From Wandonia haliotis (lineage in GTDB: Bacteria; Bacteroidota; Bacteroidia; Flavobacteriales_D; Crocinitomicaceae), in NCBI RefSeq assembly GCF_039523435.1, contig NZ_BAAAFH010000001.1, positions 1 to 64,000 of the forward strand: a stretch of DNA of 64,000 bases, given 5' to 3'. Under the pieces are notes generated by a model that saw only the letters and a list, made by a program, of their open reading frames with translations, had not been told where the DNA came from and ran no database searches. Shown piece after piece: positions 3,070-62,210 of this stretch (its first letter is position 1; the number at the start of each line of letters is the position of its first letter). The translations under genes and the position numbers were made by a program.

Positions 3070-3797
3070 AATTAGAATTTTTAGTTATAGGTTTTGAATT
3101 ATTTACTGTTATCAAGATGTTATACAACACCTTTTTTCTTTTTACATATTCACCGAGAGAGTTATTCATTTCTCTCAATGATTCTGCACACATTCAGTAG
3201 ATATAAAAATTTCCTTTGTGTCCTTCTTCCCTACTCAATTTTCAGGAAATTTCACTGTTATCAGAAAATTCAGTATTCAGAGTCGTTTACATACCGATAA
3301 GAAAACACGTGTAGTAGGCGTAAAATTCTTAGAGGCAGAAATCCAGAAAAGTAGTATATCCGTTATTAATATGCGAGTTGATAAGGTTAATTTTTTGTTT
3401 AGTATTCTGTTTAATTAATGTGAAAGCAATGTAGCAAAAAAATTGAACAAAAAATATTTTCTCACATTTTTATATTTCAATACTCATTAAAAAACAAGCT
3501 GTTAAGAATTAGCGTAAAGCTGTTCATACACTAAAAATTTTAGGAAGAGCCTTCAATTTCATATATACACATTCATCGTAACGCTGTAACACAAGCCTAA
3601 GCATTACACTACCAAAATAACAGGAGTTTGATACTTTGAAAAATCAAGAAGTAGATAAATTGCTTTTTAAAAGCAAACCCATATTACAAATGACATCAGA
3701 ATAAAAAAATTCGATTTACAACTGGTTTATCCTCATTTTTTTTGATTTTTACGCAAAACTTGTCATTTAATTCAAATCCACTATTGTTTAACTGAGC

Positions 3798-6005
3798 ATG
3801 AAAAGATTCTTCCTGTCTGCTTTTTTCAGGTACTTAACACTAAATTTCTGCCTTATTATTTTTGCAATTAAGGCAATAGGACAGACATCTGTTCTAGATA
3901 GTTTGGAAAATGAACTACAACTTCATACAAAAGAGGACACAAATCGCGTTAACTTGTTGACCCAATTTGCGCATATCGCAACAGACATTGATCTTACAAA
4001 AGCTGAAAAAGCTTGTCAGGAAGCAAGAAGAATTGCTCTAAAACTGAACTACGAAATAGGAATTGCCAATGTTTACTATGAAAGAGCATGGATCCATATT
4101 GAGAAATCAGATTATCAAAGTGCTATTGAAAATGCGAAAAAAGCACTTGAAATTTATAGGAATTCCAGCAGTTTAGAGGGAGAATCCTTTAGTTTAAATT
4201 GCATAGGTACAAGTTATTATTATCAGTCAAATTATCCAAAAGCAATTGAGTATTATTTAAAATCCGCAGAAATAGATGAAGCAAGAAATGATTTGAAAGG
4301 AATTTCCGGAAGCTACCTTAATATTGGGAATATTTATGCCGATCAGGGTGAGTTTGATCAATCATTATCTTACTATTTTAAAGCACTCGAATTAAAGAAA
4401 AAAGTTAAAGACGATTCTGGCATAGCTAAATGCTTAGGGAATATCGGAAGTGTTTACGGAGAACAGGGCAACTATCCGAAAGCATTGGATTACTTCAAAA
4501 AAGCTCAGGTGAAACATGAAAAACTCGGAAATTCAATCAATGCTTCCATCTGCCTCATGAATATTGGCTCGATCTACTTACATCAGGAAAAACTAAATAA
4601 AGCTTTTAGCACTTTTAATCAGGTTATAGAACTGAACAAAGGAAATGACAACAAGCGTATTCAAGCAATGGCTTTCAACGAAATAGGCAGTGTTTTGAGT
4701 AAGAAAAAAGAATATCCAAATGCTCTTGACTATTTTTCCAGTGCACTAGCAATCAACCGAGATGGTAATAACTTAAGAGCTGTTGCCAGTAACTTAAATA
4801 ACATTGGAAGTATTTTATTACTACAAAAAAAATATAAAGAGGCTCTAATTCATTTTGAAGAAGCAAAACAAATAAATGAATCCAACGATTTAAAAATGGG
4901 TTTGTGTAGTTCACTCATCGGAATTTCGAAAATTTATCTTGAGCAGAACAATTATCAACAAGCATTGGAATATGGACTTTCTGCTAAACTAATAGCATAC
5001 GCATCTGATCTATTAGCACACCAGCGGGATGTGACTGAAATACTTTCAAAAATCTACAATAAATTAGGTGAATACGAACAGGCCTTGCATTATCATCAAG
5101 ATTTTAAACGCTATAGCGACAGCATTTTCAATAAGGAGAAAATCGAAAAAATTGCGCAAATTGAGTACGATTTTAAATTTCAAAAGGAGTTGGAGGTTTT
5201 CAATGCAAAGGAACAAAAATTGACCAAGAAGGTTGAGCTTACGAACAAAGATTTGGAGAAATCAGAATCGCGTCTTCTCATTGGAATCGTTGTTTTCTTA
5301 ATCGTCTTATTAATTGCCGCCATTCTCATCTTTCAACTACGCCTGCGACACATTAAGTCGCAAAATGAAAACAGTTTGCTCGAGCAGAAACTGCTTCGTT
5401 CTCAAATGACCCCTCATTTCATATTTAACTCACTGTCCGTTCTTCAGGGTATGATTCTGAATAAGGAAGATCAGAAAGCCAGTCTTTATTTATCCAAATT
5501 CTCAAAACTCCTTCGGGTTACACTGGAAAGTTCCCGGGAAAAAATGACTCCCCTATCTCAGGAAATTATTGCGCTTGAAAACTATGTAGCTATTCAGAAT
5601 ATCGAATCAAATCAATCGTTTACCTTTACAATTCGTGTAGCAGACACTATACATTCAGGAAACATACTCATTCCCCCCATGTTGATACAACCGTTTGTAG
5701 AAAATGCGATAGAACATGCTTTCACGCCTGATCACCGGGAAAAGAAGATTGAAGTTGAATTTTCATTTCCTGATAACCAACTTATTTGTACAATTACAGA
5801 CAATGGTATCGGAGTTCAGGAAAAGAAAAATCGTTCGGTGAACTCAAAAAAGTCATTGGCTACTTCTATTTCAAAAGAACGGATTCAACTGTTGGCAAGA
5901 GAATTGAAAACAGAAGGTTCCATACAGATTATAGATAGAAAAAGTAATAATGAGAACGGAACACAGGTAACGTTAGTTATTCCTTACAAATTCGGTAAAC
6001 AATGA
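3798..6005 (+). CDS. Sensor histidine kinase with TPR repeats, a transmembrane helix, a LytS/YehU-type His_kinase domain and HATPase_c
   Basis: Signal/TM at the N-terminus. Multiple TPR-like YYxxA repeats, a TM segment (LLIGIVVFLIVLLIAAILIF), the MTPHFIFNSL motif of the PF06580 His_kinase domain, and ENAIEHAF plus DNGIG ATPase boxes. Overlaps the downstream response regulator (ATGA). Confidence 0.8.
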   Translation: MKRFFLSAFFRYLTLNFCLIIFAIKAIGQTSVLDSLENELQLHTKEDTNRVNLLTQFAHIATDIDLTKAEKACQEARRIALKLNYEIGIANVYYERAWIHIEKSDYQSAIENAKKALEIYRNSSSLEGESFSLNCIGTSYYYQSNYPKAIEYYLKSAEIDEARNDLKGISGSYLNIGNIYADQGEFDQSLSYYFKALELKKKVKDDSGIAKCLGNIGSVYGEQGNYPKALDYFKKAQVKHEKLGNSINASICLMNIGSIYLHQEKLNKAFSTFNQVIELNKGNDNKRIQAMAFNEIGSVLSKKKEYPNALDYFSSALAINRDGNNLRAVASNLNNIGSILLLQKKYKEALIHFEEAKQINESNDLKMGLCSSLIGISKIYLEQNNYQQALEYGLSAKLIAYASDLLAHQRDVTEILSKIYNKLGEYEQALHYHQDFKRYSDSIFNKEKIEKIAQIEYDFKFQKELEVFNAKEQKLTKKVELTNKDLEKSESRLLIGIVVFLIVLLIAAILIFQLRLRHIKSQNENSLLEQKLLRSQMTPHFIFNSLSVLQGMILNKEDQKASLYLSKFSKLLRVTLESSREKMTPLSQEIIALENYVAIQNIESNQSFTFTIRVADTIHSGNILIPPMLIQPFVENAIEHAFTPDHREKKIEVEFSFPDNQLICTITDNGIGVQEKKNRSVNSKKSLATSISKERIQLLARELKTEGSIQIIDRKSNNENGTQVTLVIPYKFGKQ

Positions 6006-7548: not shown

Positions 7549-8802
7549 ATGAAAAGATCAATACTTGGAATAGTAACAATGACAATGATGAGCACGACAG
7601 TATTGGCTCAAAACGTCACTATTCCGGATGCAAATTTTAAAGCCTATTTGCTTGCCAATACGGCAATTAACACAAATAGTGATTCTGAAATTCAAATCAG
7701 TGAAGCTGCTGCATTTTCTGGTCAAATGGATTGCGGTTACCTCAATATTTCAGACTTAACAGGTCTCGAAGCATTTTCGTCATTAACAGACTTGCGTTGC
7801 TACGGAAATAGCATCGCTTCATTAGATGTTAGCCAGAATTCAGCACTGGAGTACTTAAATTGTGGATACAATGGAAATTTGGTTTCGTTAAATACGGGAG
7901 CATTGACTTCTTTACACACAGTAATAACAACTGATAATACCAGTATGTCCTCTGTCGATTTTAGCCAAAACACGGCGCTGGAGACCCTGGATGTAACATC
8001 GAATGAGTTGTTTAACCTGGATGTAGCTCAAAATACAGCTCTGAAAAATCTGACTATTAATTTTAACCACATTACTACTTTGGATTTGAGCAATAATCCA
8101 AACCTTCTTTCGCTAAGCTGTTTTAACAACACATTAACTTCCCTGGATTTAAGTAATTGTCCGCTATTAAGTAATTTAGCCTGTGGAGGTAATTCTATTT
8201 CCTCACTCGATCTTAGTGCATTACCTGGTTTGTTCAATTTTAGCTGCAATGGAAATAACCTAATTGCTTTAGATGTTTCCAATAATCCAATTTTGAGCGT
8301 ATTACGATGTGAAAACAACAGCATTCAACAATTAGACGTAAGTCAAAATGTCGATTTGGCATACTTCACTTGTCAATCAAATGAATTGACATCGCTAAAT
8401 ATGAAAAACTTAAATTCAACAACGTTAGGGAGCTTTGACGCTACTTCAAATCCAAACCTAACTTGCATTGAGGTGGATGATGTAACAGACGCTACAACGA
8501 ACTGGACAGATATTGATGCGACAGCCAGCTTTAGTTTATCATGCAGCAGCTTAGGAATACAAGAAGCGAATCTTCATGAAACTATTTCCGTCTCTCCCAA
8601 TCCTACTTCGGGAGAAATAAGAATTAGGGAATTAACGAATCAGGCCGATTATCAAGTAGTAAGTTTATCCGGACAAATCGTTAAAAAAGGTGTCATTTTT
8701 CCTGAGGGGAAACTAAATGTTGAGGATATCACTCCAGGAGTTTACTTTATCCATGTTCAAACAGACAACAAATTGTTCACCTCAAAATTCATCAAAAAAT
8801 AA
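7549..8802 (+). CDS. Leucine-rich-repeat surface protein with a T9SS C-terminal domain
   Basis: Signal peptide. About 12 LxxLxLxxNxL-type repeats (LDVSQNxxLxxL). C-terminal VSPNPTSGEIRIR...YFIHVQTDNKLFTSKFIKK resembles a T9SS CTD. Confidence 0.7.
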   Translation: MKRSILGIVTMTMMSTTVLAQNVTIPDANFKAYLLANTAINTNSDSEIQISEAAAFSGQMDCGYLNISDLTGLEAFSSLTDLRCYGNSIASLDVSQNSALEYLNCGYNGNLVSLNTGALTSLHTVITTDNTSMSSVDFSQNTALETLDVTSNELFNLDVAQNTALKNLTINFNHITTLDLSNNPNLLSLSCFNNTLTSLDLSNCPLLSNLACGGNSISSLDLSALPGLFNFSCNGNNLIALDVSNNPILSVLRCENNSIQQLDVSQNVDLAYFTCQSNELTSLNMKNLNSTTLGSFDATSNPNLTCIEVDDVTDATTNWTDIDATASFSLSCSSLGIQEANLHETISVSPNPTSGEIRIRELTNQADYQVVSLSGQIVKKGVIFPEGKLNVEDITPGVYFIHVQTDNKLFTSKFIKK

Positions 8803-13431: not shown

Positions 13432-15156
13432 TTACAATTCTTCACGTTCAAGCCACTCCAATTCCCCCGGTAGTTCCATCGAGCAAAACTCCAGGTGAAT
13501 CACACGTCTTCGTTTTTGATTTTGCGCTTTGGAAGAAGCGTGTAATAAAAGTGGTTTCATCAACTGAACACCTCCCTCCTGCACTTCTATAGTAACAGGA
13601 GTAGCACTGGAAATAATAGCTTCTTTTTCTCCATCCGAATAACGCTGACTGTGAGAACCGGGTATAACCTTTAATGCACCATTTTTGACCGTAGCCTGAT
13701 CCAGATGCACACGAATACTAAACGTACATTTCAGAATTTCCTCGGGCGGGCATACACTCGTAATTCCATTTCTGTTGGTCCAGGAAGAAAAACCGTCCGT
13801 CTCTATCCGTTTGTTTACATTGACCGGAACATCCTGATGCCAGGTAACATACCAATTATCCGTATCAGGCTTATCAAAATAGATGGCTTTCGTCAGAAAA
13901 GCATTCTCATCCACAACCTGTACAATTTTTCTCAGGTTCCTATTCAATACAATTTTTTTCAGTTCGGGAATATCTTTCAATAACGTCCGCTTTCCAAAAG
14001 TCGGCTCATCGTGTTTATCAAAGTAAATATAAATCTTCTTCCCTATTTCCCGAATTTCCTTCCGCGTATATATATCGTTCAAAACAACATATCCATTCCG
14101 CTCCAGTTTCCTTGAAGCGGCTACCAAGTTCGGTTGGTGTAAATGTGTTCTGTATTGATCCAGCGCATTTTGTAGCTGATCCTGTATCCTCCTCCGGAGT
14201 GAACTGGGTTGTAGCACCTGAACCGTATCACCAAATCCCAAAATCAATCGTTCCAATTCAAAGTTATGGTGTACAAAAAGTTCCAGAATGATTCCATCAT
14301 CCGGCAACTGCTCCAGTACGCGTTGCGAATGGTGCAACGGCTTGGTTACGAGATATGGAGCATTTGAAGCATCTACTTTCAAAATCACCCGGTCAACATA
14401 TTTCTCGTCCATTACTGTTACACCTATCGTATTTTTATAATACGCATCTCCATCAAAAGGCTCTTCTAAAGCCTCCTTTTTCAGATCATACTCAACAGAC
14501 ACTATTCTATCCAGAGCAAGGGTTATAATACTCCCATTGCGTTTGTTTTTTCCCACAAGAAACCACCTGTTGTTATATTCTTTCAAAATAAACGGATAGA
14601 AAGTCATTTCCGAACTCTCTTTAGCTGAAAAAGATTTGTAGCGAATCTTCAAAACCAACTTTTTCACAATAGCCTGGTACAGCGCGTCCAGATGTTCCAG
14701 TCCTTTCAATCGCTCATTTTTGTCTAAATGAATGACTGCCGGTTGATGTGTTTTCTCTGTATAAATCCGATCTTCCAGTTTTTGGATAATGTCCCCCAAC
14801 TCCGAAAACAAAGAAAAATCTCTGAATTGCTTCAACATTTCCACCGATTCCGTAAGTACCTGCATATCTCCCTCATTCAAAGGAATATCTGTCATTCTGT
14901 AATCCGGGTCATCGTATTTATAATATTTCTTATCGTAAACCACAATAGGCGCATTATACCCTAGCTTATCACTCCTCATCAATTGAATATCCAATTGAAC
15001 CGTCCGTTTACTCACATTAACATCCCTGCCTTCGTATTCGTACAAAGCATCAGAACAAGCCTCAATAAGATCTTCTAATGTCCACTTATGGTACTGATTT
15101 TGCAGACATTTATCAATTGTTTTGTAACGTATCAGTGCATTTTTATTCTGAGCCAT
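13432..15156 (-). CDS. WYL-domain transcriptional regulator (wHTH-WYL-WCX) fused to a C-terminal PhyH-family 2-oxoglutarate/Fe(II) dioxygenase domain
   Basis: The N-terminus matches WYL regulators (NALIRYKTIDKCL HTH; NRWFLVGKNKRNGSIITLALDRIVSVE WYL core; WCX-like region). The C-terminal ~230 aa carry the PhyH hallmarks WHQD (His-x-Asp), GALKVIPGSH, a distal His and RRVIHLEF. It is divergent from rtcB. Confidence 0.75.
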   Translation of the reverse strand: MAQNKNALIRYKTIDKCLQNQYHKWTLEDLIEACSDALYEYEGRDVNVSKRTVQLDIQLMRSDKLGYNAPIVVYDKKYYKYDDPDYRMTDIPLNEGDMQVLTESVEMLKQFRDFSLFSELGDIIQKLEDRIYTEKTHQPAVIHLDKNERLKGLEHLDALYQAIVKKLVLKIRYKSFSAKESSEMTFYPFILKEYNNRWFLVGKNKRNGSIITLALDRIVSVEYDLKKEALEEPFDGDAYYKNTIGVTVMDEKYVDRVILKVDASNAPYLVTKPLHHSQRVLEQLPDDGIILELFVHHNFELERLILGFGDTVQVLQPSSLRRRIQDQLQNALDQYRTHLHQPNLVAASRKLERNGYVVLNDIYTRKEIREIGKKIYIYFDKHDEPTFGKRTLLKDIPELKKIVLNRNLRKIVQVVDENAFLTKAIYFDKPDTDNWYVTWHQDVPVNVNKRIETDGFSSWTNRNGITSVCPPEEILKCTFSIRVHLDQATVKNGALKVIPGSHSQRYSDGEKEAIISSATPVTIEVQEGGVQLMKPLLLHASSKAQNQKRRRVIHLEFCSMELPGELEWLEREEL

Positions 15157-15636: not shown

Positions 15637-17037
15637 ATGGGAAAGAAAATTAAAGGGAAAGATCTGGTTAATCTGGGTTTTCCACAAAACAATACAATCA
15701 ATATCGCTTTGGGACAAATCAGCAGGTACCGTAAAAAGTGTGACAAACAAAAATTGCTGAATGAACTTAGTGATGTCATTGCCAATCAGGACTCTTATAA
15801 AGACGACCCTGTATGGGGAAAAATTATTGAAGCAATGACGGATCCGGTAGAACTCGAAATGCACACCTTACAATCACATCGTGTTCCTTTCGAAATATTC
15901 GGAGAAAATGAAATTGGCGATCTGGCAAAACATCAGTTTTATGGTTCGTTGAAACTTCCGATAGCGGTACGGGGTGCACTCATGCCTGATGCTCATGGTG
16001 GTTACGGACTACCAATAGGTGGAGTACTTGCAACAAAAAACGCAGTAATTCCTTATGGTGTAGGTGTTGACATCGGCTGTAGAATGGCGATGTCAGTGTT
16101 CCCCCTCCCTGCCAGTCATTTCAAAGGTCGAACGGATCAAATGAAAAAGATACTCTCCGAACATACTAAATTCGGTATGTACGAAACTCATAGGGTAAAA
16201 CATGATCACCCCATATTTGAGAGAAGTGAGTTTCGCGAAATTCCGTTGTTGAAGCAGCTTTTCAAAAAAGCTTACCAACAGTTAGGAACATCAGGAGGAG
16301 GAAATCATTTCGTTGAATTCGGAGTAGTGACTATGCGGGAAGATCTCTATCTAGATGGTAAGCTTCAGCTTCCTCAGGGAGAATATCTGGCTTTGCTGTC
16401 GCATAGTGGTTCCAGAGGGTTGGGAGCCAATATCGCCCAGCATTATACGCATCTGGCAAAAAAGCAATGTCACTTGCCTAAACAGGTACAGCACCTTGCC
16501 TGGTTAGATATGGATAAACACGATGGAATGGAGTACTGGATTGCGATGAATCTGGCCGGTGAGTATGCCAAGGCGTGTCATGATAATATCCATTCCAGAA
16601 TAGCCAAAGAGCTCGGAACTCAAATCACTGTAACCATTGAAAACCATCATAATTTTGCATGGAAAGAAAAAGTTAACGGGGAAGAGTGTATCGTTCACAG
16701 AAAAGGTGCTACACCTGCCGGAAAAGGAGTTCTCGGAATTATTCCCGGATCAATGACTGCTCCCGGATATATTGTAAGAGGCCTGGGAAATGAAAATAGT
16801 TTGAATTCAGCTTCTCACGGTGCCGGACGTATGTTCTCCAGAAGTCAGTGTAAATCCAAATTCACGAAGAGTGAGATCCAAAAACTACTCCAAACCAATG
16901 GAATAGAGTTAATCGGAGGGAATGTAGATGAAGCACCGATGGCGTATAAAGATATTCATACAGTCATGAACAACCAACAGGAATTGGTAGAAGTGATTGG
17001 TGAATTTCAACCAAAAATCGTTCGTATGGACAAATAA
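15637..17037 (+). CDS. rtcB: RNA-splicing ligase RtcB (3'-phosphate/2',3'-cyclic phosphate RNA ligase)
   Basis: Canonical RtcB motifs (MPDAHGGYGLPIGGV, GGGNHF, HNFA, ASHGAGR). 466 aa. Confidence 0.9.
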   Translation: MGKKIKGKDLVNLGFPQNNTINIALGQISRYRKKCDKQKLLNELSDVIANQDSYKDDPVWGKIIEAMTDPVELEMHTLQSHRVPFEIFGENEIGDLAKHQFYGSLKLPIAVRGALMPDAHGGYGLPIGGVLATKNAVIPYGVGVDIGCRMAMSVFPLPASHFKGRTDQMKKILSEHTKFGMYETHRVKHDHPIFERSEFREIPLLKQLFKKAYQQLGTSGGGNHFVEFGVVTMREDLYLDGKLQLPQGEYLALLSHSGSRGLGANIAQHYTHLAKKQCHLPKQVQHLAWLDMDKHDGMEYWIAMNLAGEYAKACHDNIHSRIAKELGTQITVTIENHHNFAWKEKVNGEECIVHRKGATPAGKGVLGIIPGSMTAPGYIVRGLGNENSLNSASHGAGRMFSRSQCKSKFTKSEIQKLLQTNGIELIGGNVDEAPMAYKDIHTVMNNQQELVEVIGEFQPKIVRMDK

Positions 17038-17047
17038 CAAAAACAAA

Positions 17048-17761
17048 ATGGACACACAAATTATAACCCTATCATCAGGAAGAGGCCCGGCAGAGTGCTG
17101 CTGGGTCGTTTCCCAGGTTCTGAAGCAAATACTGATCGAAATCAGGAGTATGGGCTATACCTATCACATTATTGACGAACAACAAGGAGACCTACCGGGG
17201 ACGTATCACTCAGTAAGCCTGTCTGTTGCCGGAAATGAATTGATTCATTTGCAGAAATCATGGGAAGGAACAATCCAGTGGACCGGAACCTCTATGTACC
17301 GCAAACATCATAAACGAAAAAACTGGTTTGTAGCCGTACAATTCAGAAAAAATACTGATTTGTTAAGTATTGATTTGAATCAGTTAAAATTTCAAACCAT
17401 GCGAAGCGGAGGAAAAGGCGGTCAACATGTTAATAAAGTCAGTACCGCCGTTCGTGTTACCCACACTCCTACCGGAATCAGTGTTACCAGTAGCACGCAT
17501 CGTTCCCAGTTACAAAATAAAAAACTGGCATTGCAAAAGCTGCAATTAAAATTGGAGGAGCAGCAACTGGAAGAAGCGGGGAAACAAGCTAGTAGGAACT
17601 GGCAGGAGAAAATTGAAATTGAAAGAGGAAATCCCATCAGAGTGTTTAGTAGCCTACAATTCAAGGATTCGGCAAATAAAAACAATAAACAGTTTGGCTC
17701 CCGAAGACAGCTACTAAAACAGGATTTACGAACAAGATTAAACGAAACCAAAGATGAATAA
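17048..17761 (+). CDS. prfH: Peptide chain release factor H-like protein (class-I RF homolog with a GGQ motif, lacking the codon-recognition N-domain)
   Basis: SGRGPAECCW N-terminus and RSGGKGGQHVNKVSTAVRVTH GGQ peptidyl-hydrolase motif. About 237 aa from the internal ATG at 17048. The ORF begins within or overlaps the 3' end of rtcB. Confidence 0.8.
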   Translation: MDTQIITLSSGRGPAECCWVVSQVLKQILIEIRSMGYTYHIIDEQQGDLPGTYHSVSLSVAGNELIHLQKSWEGTIQWTGTSMYRKHHKRKNWFVAVQFRKNTDLLSIDLNQLKFQTMRSGGKGGQHVNKVSTAVRVTHTPTGISVTSSTHRSQLQNKKLALQKLQLKLEEQQLEEAGKQASRNWQEKIEIERGNPIRVFSSLQFKDSANKNNKQFGSRRQLLKQDLRTRLNETKDE

Positions 17762-18275
17762 ATACCTTTTGGAGGCACTGGATGCTTACCCTTTTGATCT
17801 GGCGCAAGCTTTTGAAGCAATGGAATACGCCTTGAGTAGTGATAATCAATGTCCCCATACACTTTGTCTGTACGGAAGAATGTATGCAGAACAGCTACAG
17901 GACTACCCCAAAGCTATCAGTTATTTTGAAGAAGCACTTCAAAGTAATCTCTATGCCATTCAGGTCTATCCGTATTATATTAATGCGCTATTAAACTATG
18001 AAGAATTTGAAGCTGCAAAAAAATTAATTGACTTTGCCTTAGATGTAAAAGGTGCAGATAAAGGGGGACTTCTTCTTCTCAAAGCTTTGTATTTTGAGTA
18101 TAAAAAGGAGTACAACGAAGCCCTCAACACACTAAAAGAATCAGAATCATTTAGTTTTAATCAAGACTTCAAAAACTCGTTAAAAGAAGCTAAGACCAGG
18201 ATTGAAGAGAAAAAATCACCTCAAAAAGAAGTGAACAAAACGAAAAAAAAGAAGGTTACGAAAAAGAAATCATAA
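17754..18275 (+). CDS. Hypothetical alpha-helical TPR-like protein with a lysine-rich C-terminal tail, embedded between prfH and the second rtcB
   Basis: ATGA overlap with the prfH stop. Helical repeat pattern (YPKAISYFEEALQ...). KKKKVTKKKS tail. No recognised family. Confidence 0.5.
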   Translation: MNKYLLEALDAYPFDLAQAFEAMEYALSSDNQCPHTLCLYGRMYAEQLQDYPKAISYFEEALQSNLYAIQVYPYYINALLNYEEFEAAKKLIDFALDVKGADKGGLLLLKALYFEYKKEYNEALNTLKESESFSFNQDFKNSLKEAKTRIEEKKSPQKEVNKTKKKKVTKKKS

Positions 18276-18384: not shown

Positions 18385-19767
<1,383 letters not shown>

Positions 19768-19947
19768 ACACTTCACACGACAATAAAACAATCGTTCTTT
19801 AAAATATTGTGTCACAACACAAAAGAAGTTGAATAGGTTACCGTATAAGTCCCCGATTCTGGTTTCTGAATAACCAAATAGTCTGATTCAGCATTGCTGC
19901 TTCAGGTGCTACTTACACTTTAACCATCAACACCTATAGCTATATGT

Positions 19948-20080
19948 TGAAGGTTCGAGTCCTTCCTGACCAAAAGGTTAGTATCTCAATTGGTAGAGAA
20001 ATAGCTTGAATTGTGTGGGTTCGAGCCCCACTCTGCAAAAGCGGATAGCTCAATTGGTAGAGCGCTGAATAGTGGATTCA
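19948..20080 (+). ncRNA. Cluster of tRNA-like modules that do not form canonical cloverleaf tRNAs. It holds two T-arms, two D-arm-like elements and an acceptor-plus-anticodon-like 5' half. Candidate tRNA-mimic ncRNA or tRNA pseudogene debris
   Basis: T-arm 1 is GAAGGTTCGAGTCCTTC followed by CTGACCA at 19948-19971. A D-arm follows at 19983-19998 (TCTCAATTGGTAGAGA). T-arm 2 is GTGGGTTCGAGCCCCAC at 20014-20030. The 5' half GCGGATAGCTCAATTGGTAGAGCGCTGAATAGTGGATTCAG lies at 20040-20080. Acceptor strands do not pair in the normal order. AGGTTAG (19974-19980) can pair 6/7 with the preceding CTGACCA, a permuted arrangement, and no anticodon arm follows it. Confidence 0.45.
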
Positions 20081-20338
20081 GTTTTCAAAAGAAGTTGATT
20101 ACTTCTAAAAATAATCACACGGGATGTTGTGACTTTTCAGTTTGTTCCTTTTTAGGACATGCAATCTGAAAATCGCCGGTTAAACAGGATATCGCCTTAA
20201 TAAAATTTCACCAATCTAATTTCATTTTTATTTGAGATAAGTAGCGTAAAATTGAATCAAGGCTTAATGTACGATCCGCAATTGACAGGTGAAAAGTTCA
20301 CAACATCTCTTGTTTGATAAACAATAAAAAAAGATAAC

Positions 20339-21433
20339 ATGAAAAGGGTAAAAATAAGCTCACTAAAAATTGGATTGATCTATAAAAATGAAAATTTTAA
20401 CCGGGTAACACTGGAAGGAAATCATTGGCTAGGTTTCAATGAGACAATTAGATCTTATGATCGATTAAAAATTTATGAAACTCTTCCTGATATGGAGCTG
20501 GTATCTAAGAACAAGGTATTCTCGGAAAATACTTGTGAAATTAATGTAAGAGAGAATGAAATAGCCTTGATCTTTGTTCGAAATCATTTTAATCAGGTAT
20601 TAACTACTGGGAGTTACTTTTACTTCAAGGGAAATACAGATATACAAGTACAGATTCATGATTTAAATTCTACAGAAGAAATTACTTCAATTGATACAGC
20701 CATATTGAGAAAACAATCCGTTATACATCATGTAGCAATTTACAAAGTAGAAAGCTATGAGAAAGGATTGTTATTTCAGAATGGAAAGTATATAAAAGAA
20801 CTTTCCGGAGGAAGTTTCGCTTACTGGTTAGGTTCAAAATCACTTGAATTATTAAAAATTGATTTGCGAAATACACAAATGGATATTTCAGGACAGGAGC
20901 TATTAACAAAAGATAAAGCAGCTGTACGCATAAATTTCCAATTAGAATATCGCGTAACTGACTGTTTTAAAGCTCTACTCGAAAACAAAGATTATTTGAA
21001 ACAACTCTACTCCAAAGGTCAGCTTGCCTTGCGCGAGTTTATAGGAACATTAACGCTAGATGAACTATTGGAATCAAAAGAAAAAGTTGCCACATCTGTT
21101 CTGGGGGCATTACAGCCAAGTACTGATGCACTTGGCGTTTCCATTACAGATGCCGGAATCAGAGACATCATACTTCCTGGTGAGGTACGAGAAATTATGA
21201 ATCAGGTTTTGATTGCAGAAAAAAGAGCTCAGGTTAATGTTATAGCCCGAAGAGAAGAAACTGCTTCCACCAGAACAATGTTAAACACAGCCAAACTAAT
21301 GGAAGAAAACGAAGTACTGATGAAACTAAAAGAAATGGAATACATTGAAAAAATAGCAGATAAAATTGGTGAGATCAAACTTTCGAGTGGAAGTGCAGTA
21401 ATTGATCAACTTGCAAAAATTCTCACCAAATAA
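20339..21433 (+). CDS. SPFH/band-7 (stomatin/prohibitin-like) domain protein with an uncharacterised N-terminal half
   Basis: C-terminal segment (TKDKAAVRINFQLEYRVTD...REIMNQVLIAEKRAQVNVIARREE) resembles an SPFH domain. Confidence 0.6.
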   Translation: MKRVKISSLKIGLIYKNENFNRVTLEGNHWLGFNETIRSYDRLKIYETLPDMELVSKNKVFSENTCEINVRENEIALIFVRNHFNQVLTTGSYFYFKGNTDIQVQIHDLNSTEEITSIDTAILRKQSVIHHVAIYKVESYEKGLLFQNGKYIKELSGGSFAYWLGSKSLELLKIDLRNTQMDISGQELLTKDKAAVRINFQLEYRVTDCFKALLENKDYLKQLYSKGQLALREFIGTLTLDELLESKEKVATSVLGALQPSTDALGVSITDAGIRDIILPGEVREIMNQVLIAEKRAQVNVIARREETASTRTMLNTAKLMEENEVLMKLKEMEYIEKIADKIGEIKLSSGSAVIDQLAKILTK

Positions 21434-62130: not shown

Positions 62131-62136
62131 TTTTCG

Positions 62137-62210
62137 TGGCGCGGGGGAGATTTGAACTCCCGACCTCAGGGTTATGAATCCTGCGCTCTAACCAACTGAG
62201 CTACCGCGCC
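62137..62210 (-). tRNA. tRNA with anticodon CAT (elongator Met, or Ile2 if C34 is modified to lysidine)
   Basis: The reverse complement folds into a full cloverleaf: GGCGCGG / TA / GCTC AGTTGGTTA GAGC / G / CAGGA TTCATAA CCCTG / AGGTC / GGGAG TTCAAAT CTCCC / CCGCGCC / A. The G1-C72 pair argues against an initiator. Confidence 0.85.

Follow-up and report, generated by a model that had tools for sequence, protein, structure and literature searches.

The DNA between an RtcB paralog and a Band-7/SPFH gene of Wandonia haliotis was found to carry two tandem, circularly permuted tRNA-like modules (positions 19938-20081, plus strand, of the window, by which we mean the whole stretch of 64,000 nucleotides that was analysed). 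In both modules a T-arm is followed by a loop-capped acceptor hairpin and then by a D-arm. The RNA lies directly upstream of the Band-7 gene, on the same strand, in all 38 Band-7 loci collected from several Bacteroidota lineages, including Flavobacteriales, Cyclobacteriaceae and Bacteroidales. The role of bacterial Y-RNA-like tRNA mimics and of RtcB repair operons is poorly understood. On balance, we favour the view that a Band-7–RtcB repair module uses this RNA as its partner or bait, and that the RNA is a Ro60-less, multimeric, anticodon-loop-bearing variant of tRNA mimics of the Y RNA-like A (YrlA) kind (Rfam RF02553; Chen et al. 2014, PMC4201824; structure in Wang et al. 2018, bioRxiv 10.1101/312249). 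Sequence, fold, conservation, covariation and gene linkage were computed, and from them we infer binding by Band-7 or RtcB, a role as bait or sensor, expression and processing.

The initial annotation had listed four separate tRNA-like pieces at this place. All four were recovered where they had been seen; however, they are not separate but make up two complete modules, with the following parts:

19938-20006, plus strand: tRNA-like module 1, YrlA-type, without an anticodon loop
19938-43 and 20001-06, plus strand: closing stem of module 1, 6 bp (AGCTAT / ATAGCT)
within module 1, plus strand: variable-loop-like segment, ATGTT
19949-19965, plus strand: T-arm 1 (GAAGG-TTCGAGT-CCTTC)
19966-81: capped acceptor hairpin of module 1 (CTGACC, 19966-19971, with GGTTAG, 19976-19981; AAAA loop)
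19982-83, plus strand: U8-A9 of module 1
19984-19999, plus strand: D-arm 1 (TCTC-AATTGGTA-GAGA)
20007-20014, plus strand: inter-module spacer TGAATTGT, its final base in the position-48 slot of module 2
20015-20081, plus strand: tRNA-like module 2, a complete circularly permuted tRNA body
20015-20031, plus strand: T-arm 2 (GTGGG-TTCGAGC-CCCAC)
20032-45: capped acceptor hairpin of module 2 (TCTGC, 20032-20036, with GCGGA, 20041-20045; AAAA loop)
20046-47, plus strand: U8-A9 of module 2
20048-20063, plus strand: D-arm 2 (GCTC-AATTGGTA-GAGC)
20064, plus strand: G26 of module 2
20065-20081, plus strand: anticodon-like stem-loop (ASL) of module 2 (CTGAA-TAGTGGA-TTCAG)

The suggested pairing of the 3' strand CTGACCA with the AGGTTAG that follows it is seen as the CTGACC:GGTTAG helix across the AAAA loop, and the first D-arm is indeed followed by no anticodon arm, module 1 being closed by its 6-bp stem and left open at the site of the anticodon loop. 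What had been taken for a tRNA 5' half lacking a T-arm is part of module 2, and the T-arm of this module stands upstream of it. The full order of module 2 is T-arm, acceptor 3' strand, loop, acceptor 5' strand, D-arm and anticodon arm, so that its 3' half stands upstream of its 5' half, as in circularly permuted tRNA genes. The acceptor loops have 3-5 nt, with neither discriminator nor CCA, and since they close the acceptor stem there is no free CCA end. Acceptor stem 2 has 5 bp in the window and 7 bp in many relatives. The stem that closes module 1 measures just 5-6 bp across the relatives, after which the RNA runs on into module 2. Judged from the sequence, the permuted and capped order would let each module adopt the tRNA L-shape.

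No canonical tRNA was called at the dimer by ARAGORN, whose sole call in the window was a tRNA-Met at 62136-62210, and no tmRNA was reported either by this program, which searches for tmRNA, or by Rfam. At gathering scores the window contained no Rfam match. In sensitive mode, the Rfam tRNA model reached 20.5 and 18.1 bits, short of its threshold of 29, and the only meaningful matches were to YrlA, one per module: 19941-20003 (40.4 bits, E 1.9e-7, model positions 23-85) and 20014-20063 (30.7 bits, E 1.2e-4, model positions 30-81), both below the YrlA gathering score of 69 bits. The earlier claim that the modules do not form canonical tRNAs is thus upheld by both programs. In some relatives the tRNA model did rise above its threshold, only in a register that is not conserved. 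A covariance model (R2) was built from the relatives alone, with the window and one further locus (L001) left out. Run over the whole window on both strands, it found 19936-20083 at 94.3 bits (E 2.2e-26) and, as its sole other match, the real tRNA-Met at 15.5 bits. The dimer signal is far above what chance would give.

Covariation across the relatives confirms the permuted order of T-arm, acceptor hairpin and D-arm that had been proposed from the window. In the unfitted MAFFT alignment 92.8% of the cells were paired, compared with 35-48% in slid controls, and 29 of 40 pairs showed compensatory changes; in the model-fitted alignment of 27 sequences these values were 95.7% and 34 of 40. All helices of module 1 covary (22-27 relatives). 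The acceptor hairpins formed in cis are kept by compensatory changes (93-96% paired), whereas the ordinary 5'-to-3' tRNA register was paired to 44%, the same as the controls, and a reading of the central unit as a tRNA without an anticodon arm was rejected on this account. The conserved tRNA tertiary nucleotides comprise U8, A14, the T-loop and the 15:48 pair. In module 1, U8 is present in 37/37 loci and A14 in 36/37, and the 15:48 pair, which alternates between G:C and A:U among relatives, is canonical in 27/37; in module 2 it is canonical in 33/37.

The ASL helix of module 2 is 99-100% paired, with compensatory changes in 4 of 5 pairs, and its 5-bp/7-nt/5-bp form is kept in 35 of 37 loci, two loci (L083 and L089) lying off the model register. 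The 7-nt loop keeps the coupling of positions 36 and 37 known from tRNA (G36-G37 in 19/19, U36-A37 in 11/11), while positions 34-35 vary even among close relatives. In Flavobacteriaceae the D-arm of most copies is of the Leu type, and the loop is often UAG. The loop in the window, UAGUGGA, has A and not U at position 33. Relatives carry one to three modules and additional ASL-like hairpins; the second ASL-like hairpin is missing in the window.

The dimer stands in the following gene neighbourhood:

13432-15156, minus strand: divergent gene for a WYL-WCX-PhyH protein (Pfam)
15637-17037, plus strand: RtcB (Pfam)
16997-17761, plus strand: RF-1-domain PrfH-like factor (Pfam)
17754-18275, plus strand: TPR protein (Pfam)
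18397-19767, plus strand: RtcB paralog, RNA 3'-phosphate/5'-OH ligase family (Pfam RtcB, 121 bits)
20339-21433, plus strand: Band-7/SPFH gene, stomatin-like, 'slipin' (Pfam Band_7, 95.7 bits)

The genes for RtcB, the PrfH-like factor and the TPR protein (15637-18275) are a ribosome rescue/repair module of the same operon, in line with the reported PrfH-RtcB(-TPR) association (PMC6514570, PMC9304027). The RtcB paralog directly upstream of the RNA has all catalytic residues aligned to those of P. horikoshii RtcB, and its orthologs across Bacteroidota are 67-81% identical. Most related loci likewise have the WYL-WCX-PhyH gene next to the RtcB/Band-7 genes in divergent orientation, and because of the known behaviour of WYL domains its product is likely a ligand-sensing regulator of the operon.

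The tRNA-like pieces had been noted directly downstream of the RtcB paralog, and their place next to an RNA ligase operon had been called suggestive. The operon context agrees with this, but the constant neighbour is Band-7/SPFH. Among the window and 80 loci fetched via RtcB, the element was found upstream of Band-7 in all 28 loci that have this gene and was absent from all 53 that lack it. The ten further loci fetched via Band-7 all carry it, including those from Cyclobacteriaceae and Bacteroidales genomes; a metagenome scan with Band-7 gave only 4 loci, and looking up contigs by protein identity yielded more. The RtcB next to the RNA belongs to different clades in different loci, therefore the RNA and Band-7 form the constant unit. 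Searching IMG/VR returned no Band-7 relatives, and a phage origin was discarded on this ground.

The AF2 model of the Band-7 protein has two N-terminal beta repeats, an SPFH domain, a long helix and no transmembrane segment. It folds like cage-forming SPFH proteins, with the longest span to the major vault protein. The vault particle consists of major vault protein and vault RNA. By its model, the present system would be vault-like: a small structured RNA goes with a cytosolic protein that has beta repeats, a long helix and an SPFH-like shoulder.

A transcript of about 100-140 nt had been expected from the tRNA-like pieces, but the predicted structured region is about 500 nt or more, and the dimer appears as its core. 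We place this non-coding RNA, of about 500-540 nt, at window positions ~19809-20309, with a start possibly at 19795. Besides the dimer it comprises:

19795-19807, plus strand: boundary motif TTCTTTAAAATAT, near-invariant in 8/8 sequences of the window subtype
19809-19931, plus strand: 5' domain (RNAalifold, 8 sequences)
19809-20, plus strand: GTGT/ACAC hairpin of the 5' domain
19828-32 and 19927-31, plus strand: P1 of the 5' domain (GTTGA / TCAAC)
19837-50 and 19911-24, plus strand: inner helices of the 5' domain
19856-79, plus strand: universal hairpin of the 5' domain, loop UUCUGAAUA
19882-19906, plus strand: further hairpin of the 5' domain
20086-20117, plus strand: block A, with the hairpin GATTA (20097-101) / TAATC (20112-16) and the conserved segment CUUCUAAAAA
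20121-20309, plus strand: 3' domain, a closed multi-helix structure (RNAalifold)

Scored on the same 8 related sequences from which the structures were derived, the 5' domain was 95.1% paired (29-44% in slid controls; 14 compensatory pairs; 0/500 shuffles) and the 3' domain 91.5% (42-50% in slid controls; 26 compensatory pairs; 0/500 shuffles). Motifs of the flanking domains are common to several subtypes. In 35/38 loci the loop motif GTTTCNGNA precedes the dimer by no more than 160 nt, against a background of 0.33 per kb, and in 31/38 the block A motif follows within 260 nt downstream. The block A stem covaries across subtypes (GGTC/GACC, GATCA/TGATC, AACCA/TGGTT, GGCCC/GGGTC). Within block A, AGAAG (20090-94) could pair with CTTCT (20102-06) as a candidate H-type pseudoknot; a strict H-type form was found in only 7/38 loci, its stem 1 without covariation, and is kept as a possibility. 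The boundary motif differs by one base each in L091 and L092, similar motifs are present in L013, L069, L083, L089 and L090, and it overlaps a sigma-70-like -10 site (TAAAAT); possible roles are promoter, operator and 5' edge of the RNA. In 19700-20350 no further Rfam family that might have explained the flanks (GOLLD, ROOL, preQ1 and others) matched even at E <= 10. A coding function of the gap was rejected: its largest open reading frame has merely 52 aa, begins with TTG and crosses a tRNA-like module.

We propose that the RNA would be co-transcribed with the cytosolic Band-7/SPFH gene, just upstream of it, in a WYL-regulated operon of RtcB and PrfH, and that it may belong, as the RNA subunit, to a repair particle of Band-7 and RtcB, by analogy with Y RNA and Ro60. 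Its tRNA-shaped modules could engage proteins that recognise the tRNA shape, namely the RtcB ligase, incoming anticodon nucleases or both, and the exposed, fast-evolving anticodon loops might be offered as bait or as surrogate substrates. A cut in the bait could flag an attack, and RtcB could reseal it. A role as partner is supported by the intact active site of the RtcB paralog and by the Band-7 model, predicted to be cage- or MVP-like without a membrane segment. For the bait function speak the preserved 36/37 coupling, with positions 34-35 diverging between close relatives, and the varying number of modules and ASL-like hairpins, as do the engineered permuted tRNA and the predicted Band-7-associated RNA described below. 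Against it, YrlA of Salmonella was left uncut by an SOS-induced anticodon nuclease (PMC7790460), therefore bait behaviour is no known property of this RNA class. The variability of the loop could simply mean absent constraint, and if the loops are bait, the window copy with its A33 and without a second ASL-like hairpin is atypical.

A more far-reaching version appears unlikely. Here a so far undescribed 'ornate' RNA of about 500-900 nt across Bacteroidota would join a soluble, vault-like SPFH/Band-7 oligomer and present one to three permuted tRNA decoys, whose anticodon loops would evolve fast so as to match the anticodon nucleases met in the environment; the WYL regulator would sense decoy cleavage as an alarm, and RtcB would reseal the cut. 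If true, bacteria would here have an RNA sentinel that detects toxins directed at tRNA and is coupled to repair. The locus makes testable the ideas that the SPFH protein binds RNA and that the loops are cut by anticodon nucleases and resealed by RtcB.

The fixed place 5' of Band-7, with a gap of about 30 nt and no terminator found, would be no less natural for a cis-acting leader than for a trans-acting subunit. The structured region would then be the 5' UTR of the Band-7 mRNA, and a tRNA-shaped operator, bound by RtcB, Band-7, a toxin or the machinery for damaged or uncharged tRNA, would control how well the Band-7 mRNA is translated or how stable it is. A precedent comes from E. coli, where the thrS leader mimics tRNA. 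We regard such a leader as possible, though clearly behind the role of an RNA partner. In its favour, the RNA precedes Band-7 on the same strand in 38/38 loci wherever RtcB lies, in the window subtype the 3' domain stops ~30 nt short of the Band-7 start codon, within an A-rich tract, and the search for an intrinsic terminator gave none. However, 500 nt or more with one to three full modules and two further domains far exceed the needs of known mimicry operators, YrlA-type modules are known from trans-acting ribonucleoproteins (PMC4201824), and real tRNAs adjoin the RNA in many loci, suggesting release of separate RNAs by RNase P/Z. The leader and the trans-acting RNA are not mutually exclusive.

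The view of the modules as YrlA-like mimics stood as regards fold and arm order, and YrlA is the only family that Rfam matches, but strict YrlA membership fails on the gathering score, on the unmatched Ro-binding stem and on the lack of a Ro60 gene nearby. As in YrlA, the order is T-arm, loop-closed acceptor stem and D-arm with conserved tRNA tertiary nucleotides, module 1 has no anticodon loop, and the RNA is encoded in RtcB repair operons. Unlike YrlA, which has one module, two stand here in tandem and one to three in relatives, module 2 has a complete anticodon-like arm, the modules are set in an RNA of about 500 nt or larger with extra covarying domains, and the invariant partner gene is Band-7/SPFH. 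These differences from YrlA-like mimics were not found described in the literature searched. That the RNA is nevertheless a bona fide YrlA Y RNA, tethering a Ro60/Rsr encoded elsewhere to an effector as in Deinococcus and Salmonella, seems improbable. [quoted passage not shown] Chen et al. (2014) took a Ro60 ortholog (rsr) within ~4 kb as a criterion for YrlA (PMC4201824), yet a scan of 20 ORFs of the 64-kb window detected no TROVE domain (Ro60), and the Pfam annotation of eight Band-7-fetched contigs listed none within ±5 kb. Further, model positions 1-22 and 86-114, presumably the terminal Ro-binding stem, are unaligned, the scores of 40 and 31 bits remain below 69, the gathering score was reached neither in the window nor in 10 relatives, and the constant neighbour is Band-7.

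A tRNA-like non-coding RNA in the same genomic context, beside Band-7 and RtcB, was predicted by Burroughs and Aravind (2016, NAR 44:8525) as b7a-tRNA or 'YrlA adjacent to Band-7' and proposed as an RNA-ligation cofactor, as a prediction only (described in bioRxiv 10.1101/312249). That secondary description has b7a-tRNA 'strongly resembling an authentic tRNA', whereas the present modules are permuted and escape tRNA finders; tandem modules, variable anticodon loops and large flanks do not figure in it, and the overlap may be greater than it conveys. The Band-7-associated RNA has so far been a prediction, and the locus now defines a clean and widespread system: the tRNA mimic is Ro60-less and multi-copy, exposes an anticodon loop, forms part of a much larger structured RNA and is linked to a cytosolic SPFH protein. 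None of the Rfam families covers the RNA, which makes it a new family to curate.

RtcB ligates an engineered circularly permuted tRNA-Leu(UAG) that is capped with a tetraloop, and the repair-operon regulator RtcR binds it (PMC10159003), which ties the present RNA to capped permuted tRNAs as ligase substrates and regulator ligands. As in that construct, a tetraloop replaces the acceptor end of module 2 and leaves the rest of the tRNA body intact. The construct starts and ends in the anticodon loop, imitating a cleaved tRNA, whereas the natural module is open at the variable-loop region with its anticodon loop intact, and the likely regulator here is a WYL protein instead of RtcR.

Permuted tRNA genes exist in Cyanidioschyzon merolae and other algae (PMC3978253), with the 3' half ahead of the 5' half, and their maturation needs an RNA ligase. 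A transcript of module 2 might accordingly be circularised, which RtcB could do, and opened at the acceptor loop to yield a functional tRNA. The permuted order, the 7-bp acceptor stem of many relatives, the realistic anticodon loops and the adjacent ligase fit this idea, which we nonetheless consider very improbable. The algal genes give rise to working tRNAs by way of a circular intermediate, and they possess processing signals and a CCA end. Here, by contrast, no such sign was seen: the acceptor loop of 3-5 nt lacks discriminator and CCA, with no leader or trailer; module 1 can never give an anticodon arm; acceptor stem 2 of the window has 5 bp only; the 'anticodon' identity switches between close relatives without matching changes in the body; and no splicing endonuclease gene is annotated in the loci examined.

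Debris or artefact, whether decayed tandem tRNAs, integration remnants or a false YrlA match from adjacent tRNAs, has next to no probability left: tandem tRNAs can imitate YrlA for covariance models (PMC4201824), our own model cross-matches real tRNA arrays at up to 74 bits and an origin in tandem tRNA copies is plausible, but true dimers score 80-157 bits, arrays have no self-complementary acceptor hairpins, the position is fixed in 38 loci of several lineages, and no integrase is annotated near the dimer in the window. The alternative of tRNA decay or att-site remnants, raised in the initial annotation, was rejected because of the compensatory conservation across 37 loci and of the unconserved CTGAAT/ATTCAG repeats. 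These direct repeats do exist (CTGAATA/GATTCAG at 19866-72/19885-91 and 20065-71/20075-81), but their att meaning falls; each of the upstream copies falls within a conserved helix of its own, and relatives do not keep them, so the likeness is coincidental. A recent copying of module 2 from a tRNA of a neighbouring array found no support, the best case being 35 nt with 6 mismatches. In some contigs the Band-7 gene calls are 395-454 aa long compared with the usual 364 aa; these over-long calls probably run into the RNA, and in one locus (L085) the call begins 19 nt past the dimer.

The gap between the RtcB paralog and the Band-7 gene encodes a conserved, covarying multi-domain non-coding RNA, the core of which is formed by two permuted tRNA mimics. 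Within the RtcB repair operons of Bacteroidota, the RNA occurs strictly together with a gene for a cytosolic SPFH protein, and no Ro60 lies nearby. In the window, the surrounding genes (domains from Pfam) are arranged as follows:

13432-15156, minus strand, divergent: WYL-WCX-PhyH protein
15637-17037, plus strand: RtcB
16997-17761, plus strand: RF-1-domain (PrfH-like) protein
17754-18275, plus strand: TPR protein
18397-19767, plus strand: second, divergent RtcB (the RtcB paralog)
19768-20338, plus strand: 571-nt gap containing the RNA
20339-21433, plus strand: Band-7/SPFH protein

Modules of PrfH and RtcB, with or without TPR, are established systems of ribosome rescue and repair (PMC9304027, PMC6514570). 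The RtcB paralog has kept all catalytic residues, as judged by alignment to P. horikoshii RtcB, and the 571-nt gap contains no ORF of more than 52 aa. No TROVE/Ro60 domain was found in the 20 ORFs scanned within the window, and Por_Secre_tail domains, a mark of Bacteroidota, occur among its proteins. The divergent protein, probably the regulator of the operon, is an unusual combination of WYL and WCX fused to a PhyH-like domain (Fe/2-oxoglutarate dioxygenase family), and this fusion is kept in most related loci.

Direct reading of the sequence recovered every tRNA-like piece listed in the initial annotation; these are, however, not separate fragments, but belong to two complete circularly permuted tRNA-like modules. 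The two units follow each other with identical element order at 19938-20081 (plus strand, as are all elements below):

19938-43 with 20001-06, plus: module 1 closing stem, AGCTAT pairing with ATAGCT
between AGCTAT and the T-arm, plus: module 1 ATGTT
19949-65, plus: module 1 T-arm, GAAGG-TTCGAGT-CCTTC
19966-81, plus: module 1 acceptor hairpin, CTGACC-AAAA-GGTTAG, then TA
19984-99, plus: module 1 D-arm, TCTC-AATTGGTA-GAGA, then A
between the modules, plus: spacer of 8 nt
20015-31, plus: module 2 T-arm, GTGGG-TTCGAGC-CCCAC
20032-45, plus: module 2 acceptor hairpin, TCTGC-AAAA-GCGGA, then TA
20048-63, plus: module 2 D-arm, GCTC-AATTGGTA-GAGC, then G
20065-81, plus: module 2 anticodon-like stem-loop (ASL), CTGAA-TAGTGGA-TTCAG, with a 5-bp stem and a 7-nt loop

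Using the RtcB paralog, 80 loci were fetched from Bacteroidota genomes, mostly Flavobacteriia. T-loop pairs at the spacing of the window are present in about one third of them, always in the identical layout, and each is followed within a few hundred nt by a Band-7 gene on the same strand (tblastn synteny), irrespective of whether the RtcB paralog lies before, after, or several kb off behind a tRNA array. A covariance model of the dimer (R1; 153 positions, 40 pairs), searched against the window and all 80 loci (1.06 Mb, both strands), matched at full length 27 times (87-157 bits), each time on the plus strand and upstream of a Band-7 gene, and detected a single-module version in locus L002. 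Thus, the element is present in 28 of 28 sources with Band-7, while none of the 53 loci without Band-7 has a comparable match. The Band-7 protein belongs to the large 'slipin' subfamily (more than 6,000 clusters at E <=1e-20). Ten further loci, among them one Cyclobacteriaceae chromosome and one Bacteroidales MAG, were fetched via Band-7; the dimer is present in all of them (80-124 bits), in the noncoding stretch of about 400-900 nt that precedes Band-7. The RtcB next to this pair differs between loci: it groups with the paralog in the window subtype and with the other RtcB clade in L083 and L089, and L090 has a more distant one. The RNA plus Band-7 is therefore the constant unit. A search for relatives on viral contigs found none. 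L089 (Cyclobacteriaceae CP129487, 6373-11059) has a richer RNA-repair/conflict island around this unit, in which the genes after Band-7 encode RtcB, a HEPN_Apea protein and two RlaP nucleotidyltransferases. In L026 (7353-8100), which has the RtcB paralog but neither Band-7 nor the dimer, units with AGTTCCTA recur downstream, together with a solitary T-arm-like GGTTCGAGTCC. L042 has two Flavo-1 RNA (RF01705) matches above the gathering score, at 5824-5895 (minus) and 8643-8717 (plus), on either side of the RtcB paralog.

Moreover, conservation of the flanks extends far beyond the dimer. Eight sequences of the window subtype, each spanning the boundary motif TTCTTTAAAATAT through the Band-7 ATG (547-594 nt), gave an RNAalifold prediction of 142 pairs, 51 with compensatory changes. 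Pairing reached 95.1% in the 5' domain (slid controls, 29-44%), where 14 pairs had compensatory changes, and 91.5% in the 3' domain (slid controls, 42-50%), where 26 did (0/500 shuffles for each), these structures having been derived from the same eight sequences on which the pairs were counted. Signature motifs are common to all subtypes: 35 of 38 loci have the hairpin loop GTTTCNGNA no more than 160 nt upstream of the dimer (background 0.33 per kb), and 31 of 38 have the motif of block A, the hairpin-bearing region just 3' of the dimer, no more than 260 nt downstream. The 5' boundary is marked by TTCTTTAAAATAT (window 19795-19807), which distant loci retain as well; L091 and L092 each have a single-base variant. 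This motif does not resemble the -7 box of Bacteroidota, TAnnTTTG. In the RNAalifold structure, TTCTTT of the boundary region is paired with AAAGAA at 20088-20093, without covariation; TTCTTTAAAATAT may act as a promoter or WYL operator, or may already belong to the RNA. The 13 nt CAAAAGAAGTTGA are repeated exactly and in direct orientation, at 19820-19832, just ahead of 5'-domain helix P1, and at 20086-20098, just ahead of the block-A hairpin. Both copies retain AAARAWGYTGA in relatives and may be a protein-binding site that is present twice.

The AlphaFold model of Band-7 (mean pLDDT 81, 38-sequence alignment) predicts two N-terminal beta repeats, an SPFH domain and a long C-terminal helix, and contains no transmembrane segment; a possible likeness to vaults is a lead, not a result. 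The RNA might be a component, as scaffold and/or bait, of a putative Band-7–RtcB repair complex, a mechanism to which we give slightly less than an even chance. The main rival, which is compatible with this model and which we consider unlikely, is a cis-acting leader of the Band-7 mRNA. No terminator-like site was found between the RNA and Band-7.

The RNA itself, with its tRNA-mimic modules, is almost certainly real, structured and functional. From a plain MAFFT alignment, RNAalifold recovered the six arm helices, with compensatory changes in 22 of 29 pairs. In an unfitted alignment of 22 sequences, the 8-helix, 40-pair structure was paired in 92.8% of cells, against 35-48% for slid partners, and double changes were seen in 29 pairs; none of 500 shuffles equalled the observed values. 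The model-fitted alignment (n=27) was 95.7% paired, with compensatory changes in 34 of 40 pairs; all eight helices covary, the closing stem of module 1 and the anticodon-like stem of module 2 among them. A second model (R2), built without the window and its closest relative L001, scored 19936-20083 at 94.3 bits (E 2.2e-26, entire window), although the aligned sequences are related to each other and the E-values are rough, owing to short calibration. U8 is kept in 37 of 37 dimers in both modules and A14 in 36 of 37 in module 1, the T-loop consensus is UUCRANY, and the 15:48 pair, alternating between G:C and A:U, is canonical in 27/37 dimers for module 1 and in 33/37 for module 2; the window has A15:U48 in both. 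Tandem tRNAs are a known source of false positives for YrlA (PMC4201824); here, such an artefact is effectively excluded, since real tandem tRNAs cross-match R1 at no more than 74 bits, below every full-length match. Ordinary tRNAs are effectively excluded as well: ARAGORN called no tRNA or tmRNA at the dimer site, its sole tRNA in the window being tRNA-Met at 62136-62210, and the normal tRNA register (hairpin-1 3' strand with hairpin-2 5' strand) was 44% paired, indistinguishable from controls. In a few relatives, the Rfam tRNA model scored above threshold in that register. The debris or att-remnant origin offered as an alternative by the initial annotation is effectively excluded.

At gathering thresholds Rfam gave no match at the dimer site. 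In sensitive mode over 19700-20350, the YrlA model (RF02553) matched each module once and partially, at 19941-20003 (40.4 bits, E 1.9e-7, model positions 23-85 of 114) and 20014-20063 (30.7 bits, E 1.2e-4, positions 30-81), both below the family gathering score of 69; the tRNA model reached 20.5 and 18.1 bits against a threshold of 29, and nothing else matched meaningfully. YrlA was defined as Ro60-associated RNAs with a tRNA-like domain, at most 4 kb from rsr (PMC4201824); this domain has a tRNA-like fold without CCA end or anticodon loop, and that of M. smegmatis is cut by RNase P (bioRxiv 10.1101/312249). In a broad sense, the RNA probably belongs evolutionarily and functionally to a YrlA-like class. 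RNAs that mimic tRNA in RtcB operons are an already known kind, and an RNA partner has been predicted for Band-7: as summarized in bioRxiv 10.1101/312249, Burroughs & Aravind (2016) predicted that some bacteria encode RtcB with Band-7 and a 'band 7-associated tRNA'. The same preprint notes that YrlA occasionally adjoins Band-7 and describes all of these proposals as not validated. The P. aeruginosa rtc locus also contains an SPFH gene (PMC13086221). An engineered tetraloop-capped, circularly permuted tRNA-Leu(UAG) was ligated by RtcB and was the better ligand for the regulator RtcR (Chen & Wolin 2023, PMC10159003); module 2 is a natural RNA of nearly the same design. In the literature searched we found no description of a tandem permuted tRNA-like RNA or of a large RNA upstream of Band-7. 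Nor did we find accounts of the permuted modules in tandem or in higher number, of an anticodon arm that is complete and evolves fast, of such an RNA lacking the Ro60 module, or of its being embedded in a structured RNA of ~500 nt or more, which is without an Rfam family.

Of 37 dimers, 35 have a module-2 hairpin with 5-bp stem and 7-nt loop; the two exceptions, L083 and L089, do not fit the model register. U occupies loop position 2 in 33 of 37 (A in the window), and the loop positions equivalent to tRNA 36 and 37 are coupled (G36-G37 in 19/19, U36-A37 in 11/11), which is the pattern of real tRNAs (position-37 identity). Positions 34-35 vary even among close relatives; the triplets include UAG, UUG, UCG, AGG, ACG, AAG, UGG, UUU, CAU, CAA, UAA, CUU and UAC, with GUG in the window. 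Toxins that cleave tRNAs might attack the anticodon loop or loops in place of their true targets. A D-arm of tRNA-Leu type is present in most Flavobacteriaceae copies. Module number varies as well, with a third module in L010 and L023 and only one in L002, and relatives have extra ASL-like hairpins after module 2. A second such hairpin (CAUGA-N7-UCAUG, variable loop), common to the seven closest relatives of the window, directly follows the module-2 ASL in all close relatives (L001 7781-7805 and the corresponding sites of L085-L088, L091, L092 and L002); the window lacks it at 20082-20089 (~24-nt deletion), and its remaining loop, UAGUGGA, is atypical in having A at position 33.

Tight arrays of 5-18 tRNA genes with spacers of 3-10 nt lie beside the repair genes in many RtcB/Band-7 loci (L010 8325-9567, L034 9323-10840, L069 471-1762, L073 2645-4712, also L013, L020, L060, L081 and L088); no array of this kind was found in the window. 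These tRNAs appear non-canonical, with a tRNA-Leu of 75 nt that has no long variable arm, with starts at U1, and mostly with no encoded CCA; they may represent a back-up set tied to RNA-damage defence. Comparison with these tRNAs does not support module 2 being a recent copy of a tRNA in an adjacent array. In many Flavobacteriaceae loci a tRNA-Tyr(GTA) gene abuts the 5' end of the large RNA, either intact (L054 3955-4037, L055, L067, L078) or as its 3' part only (variable arm, T-arm and acceptor 3' strand, ending in GTAGGTTCGAGTCCTACTGCTTCCA; L070 ~3090-3130, L033, L044, L050). This suggests co-transcription and RNase P/Z processing, and the abutting tRNA-Tyr could be what was named 'b7a-tRNA'.
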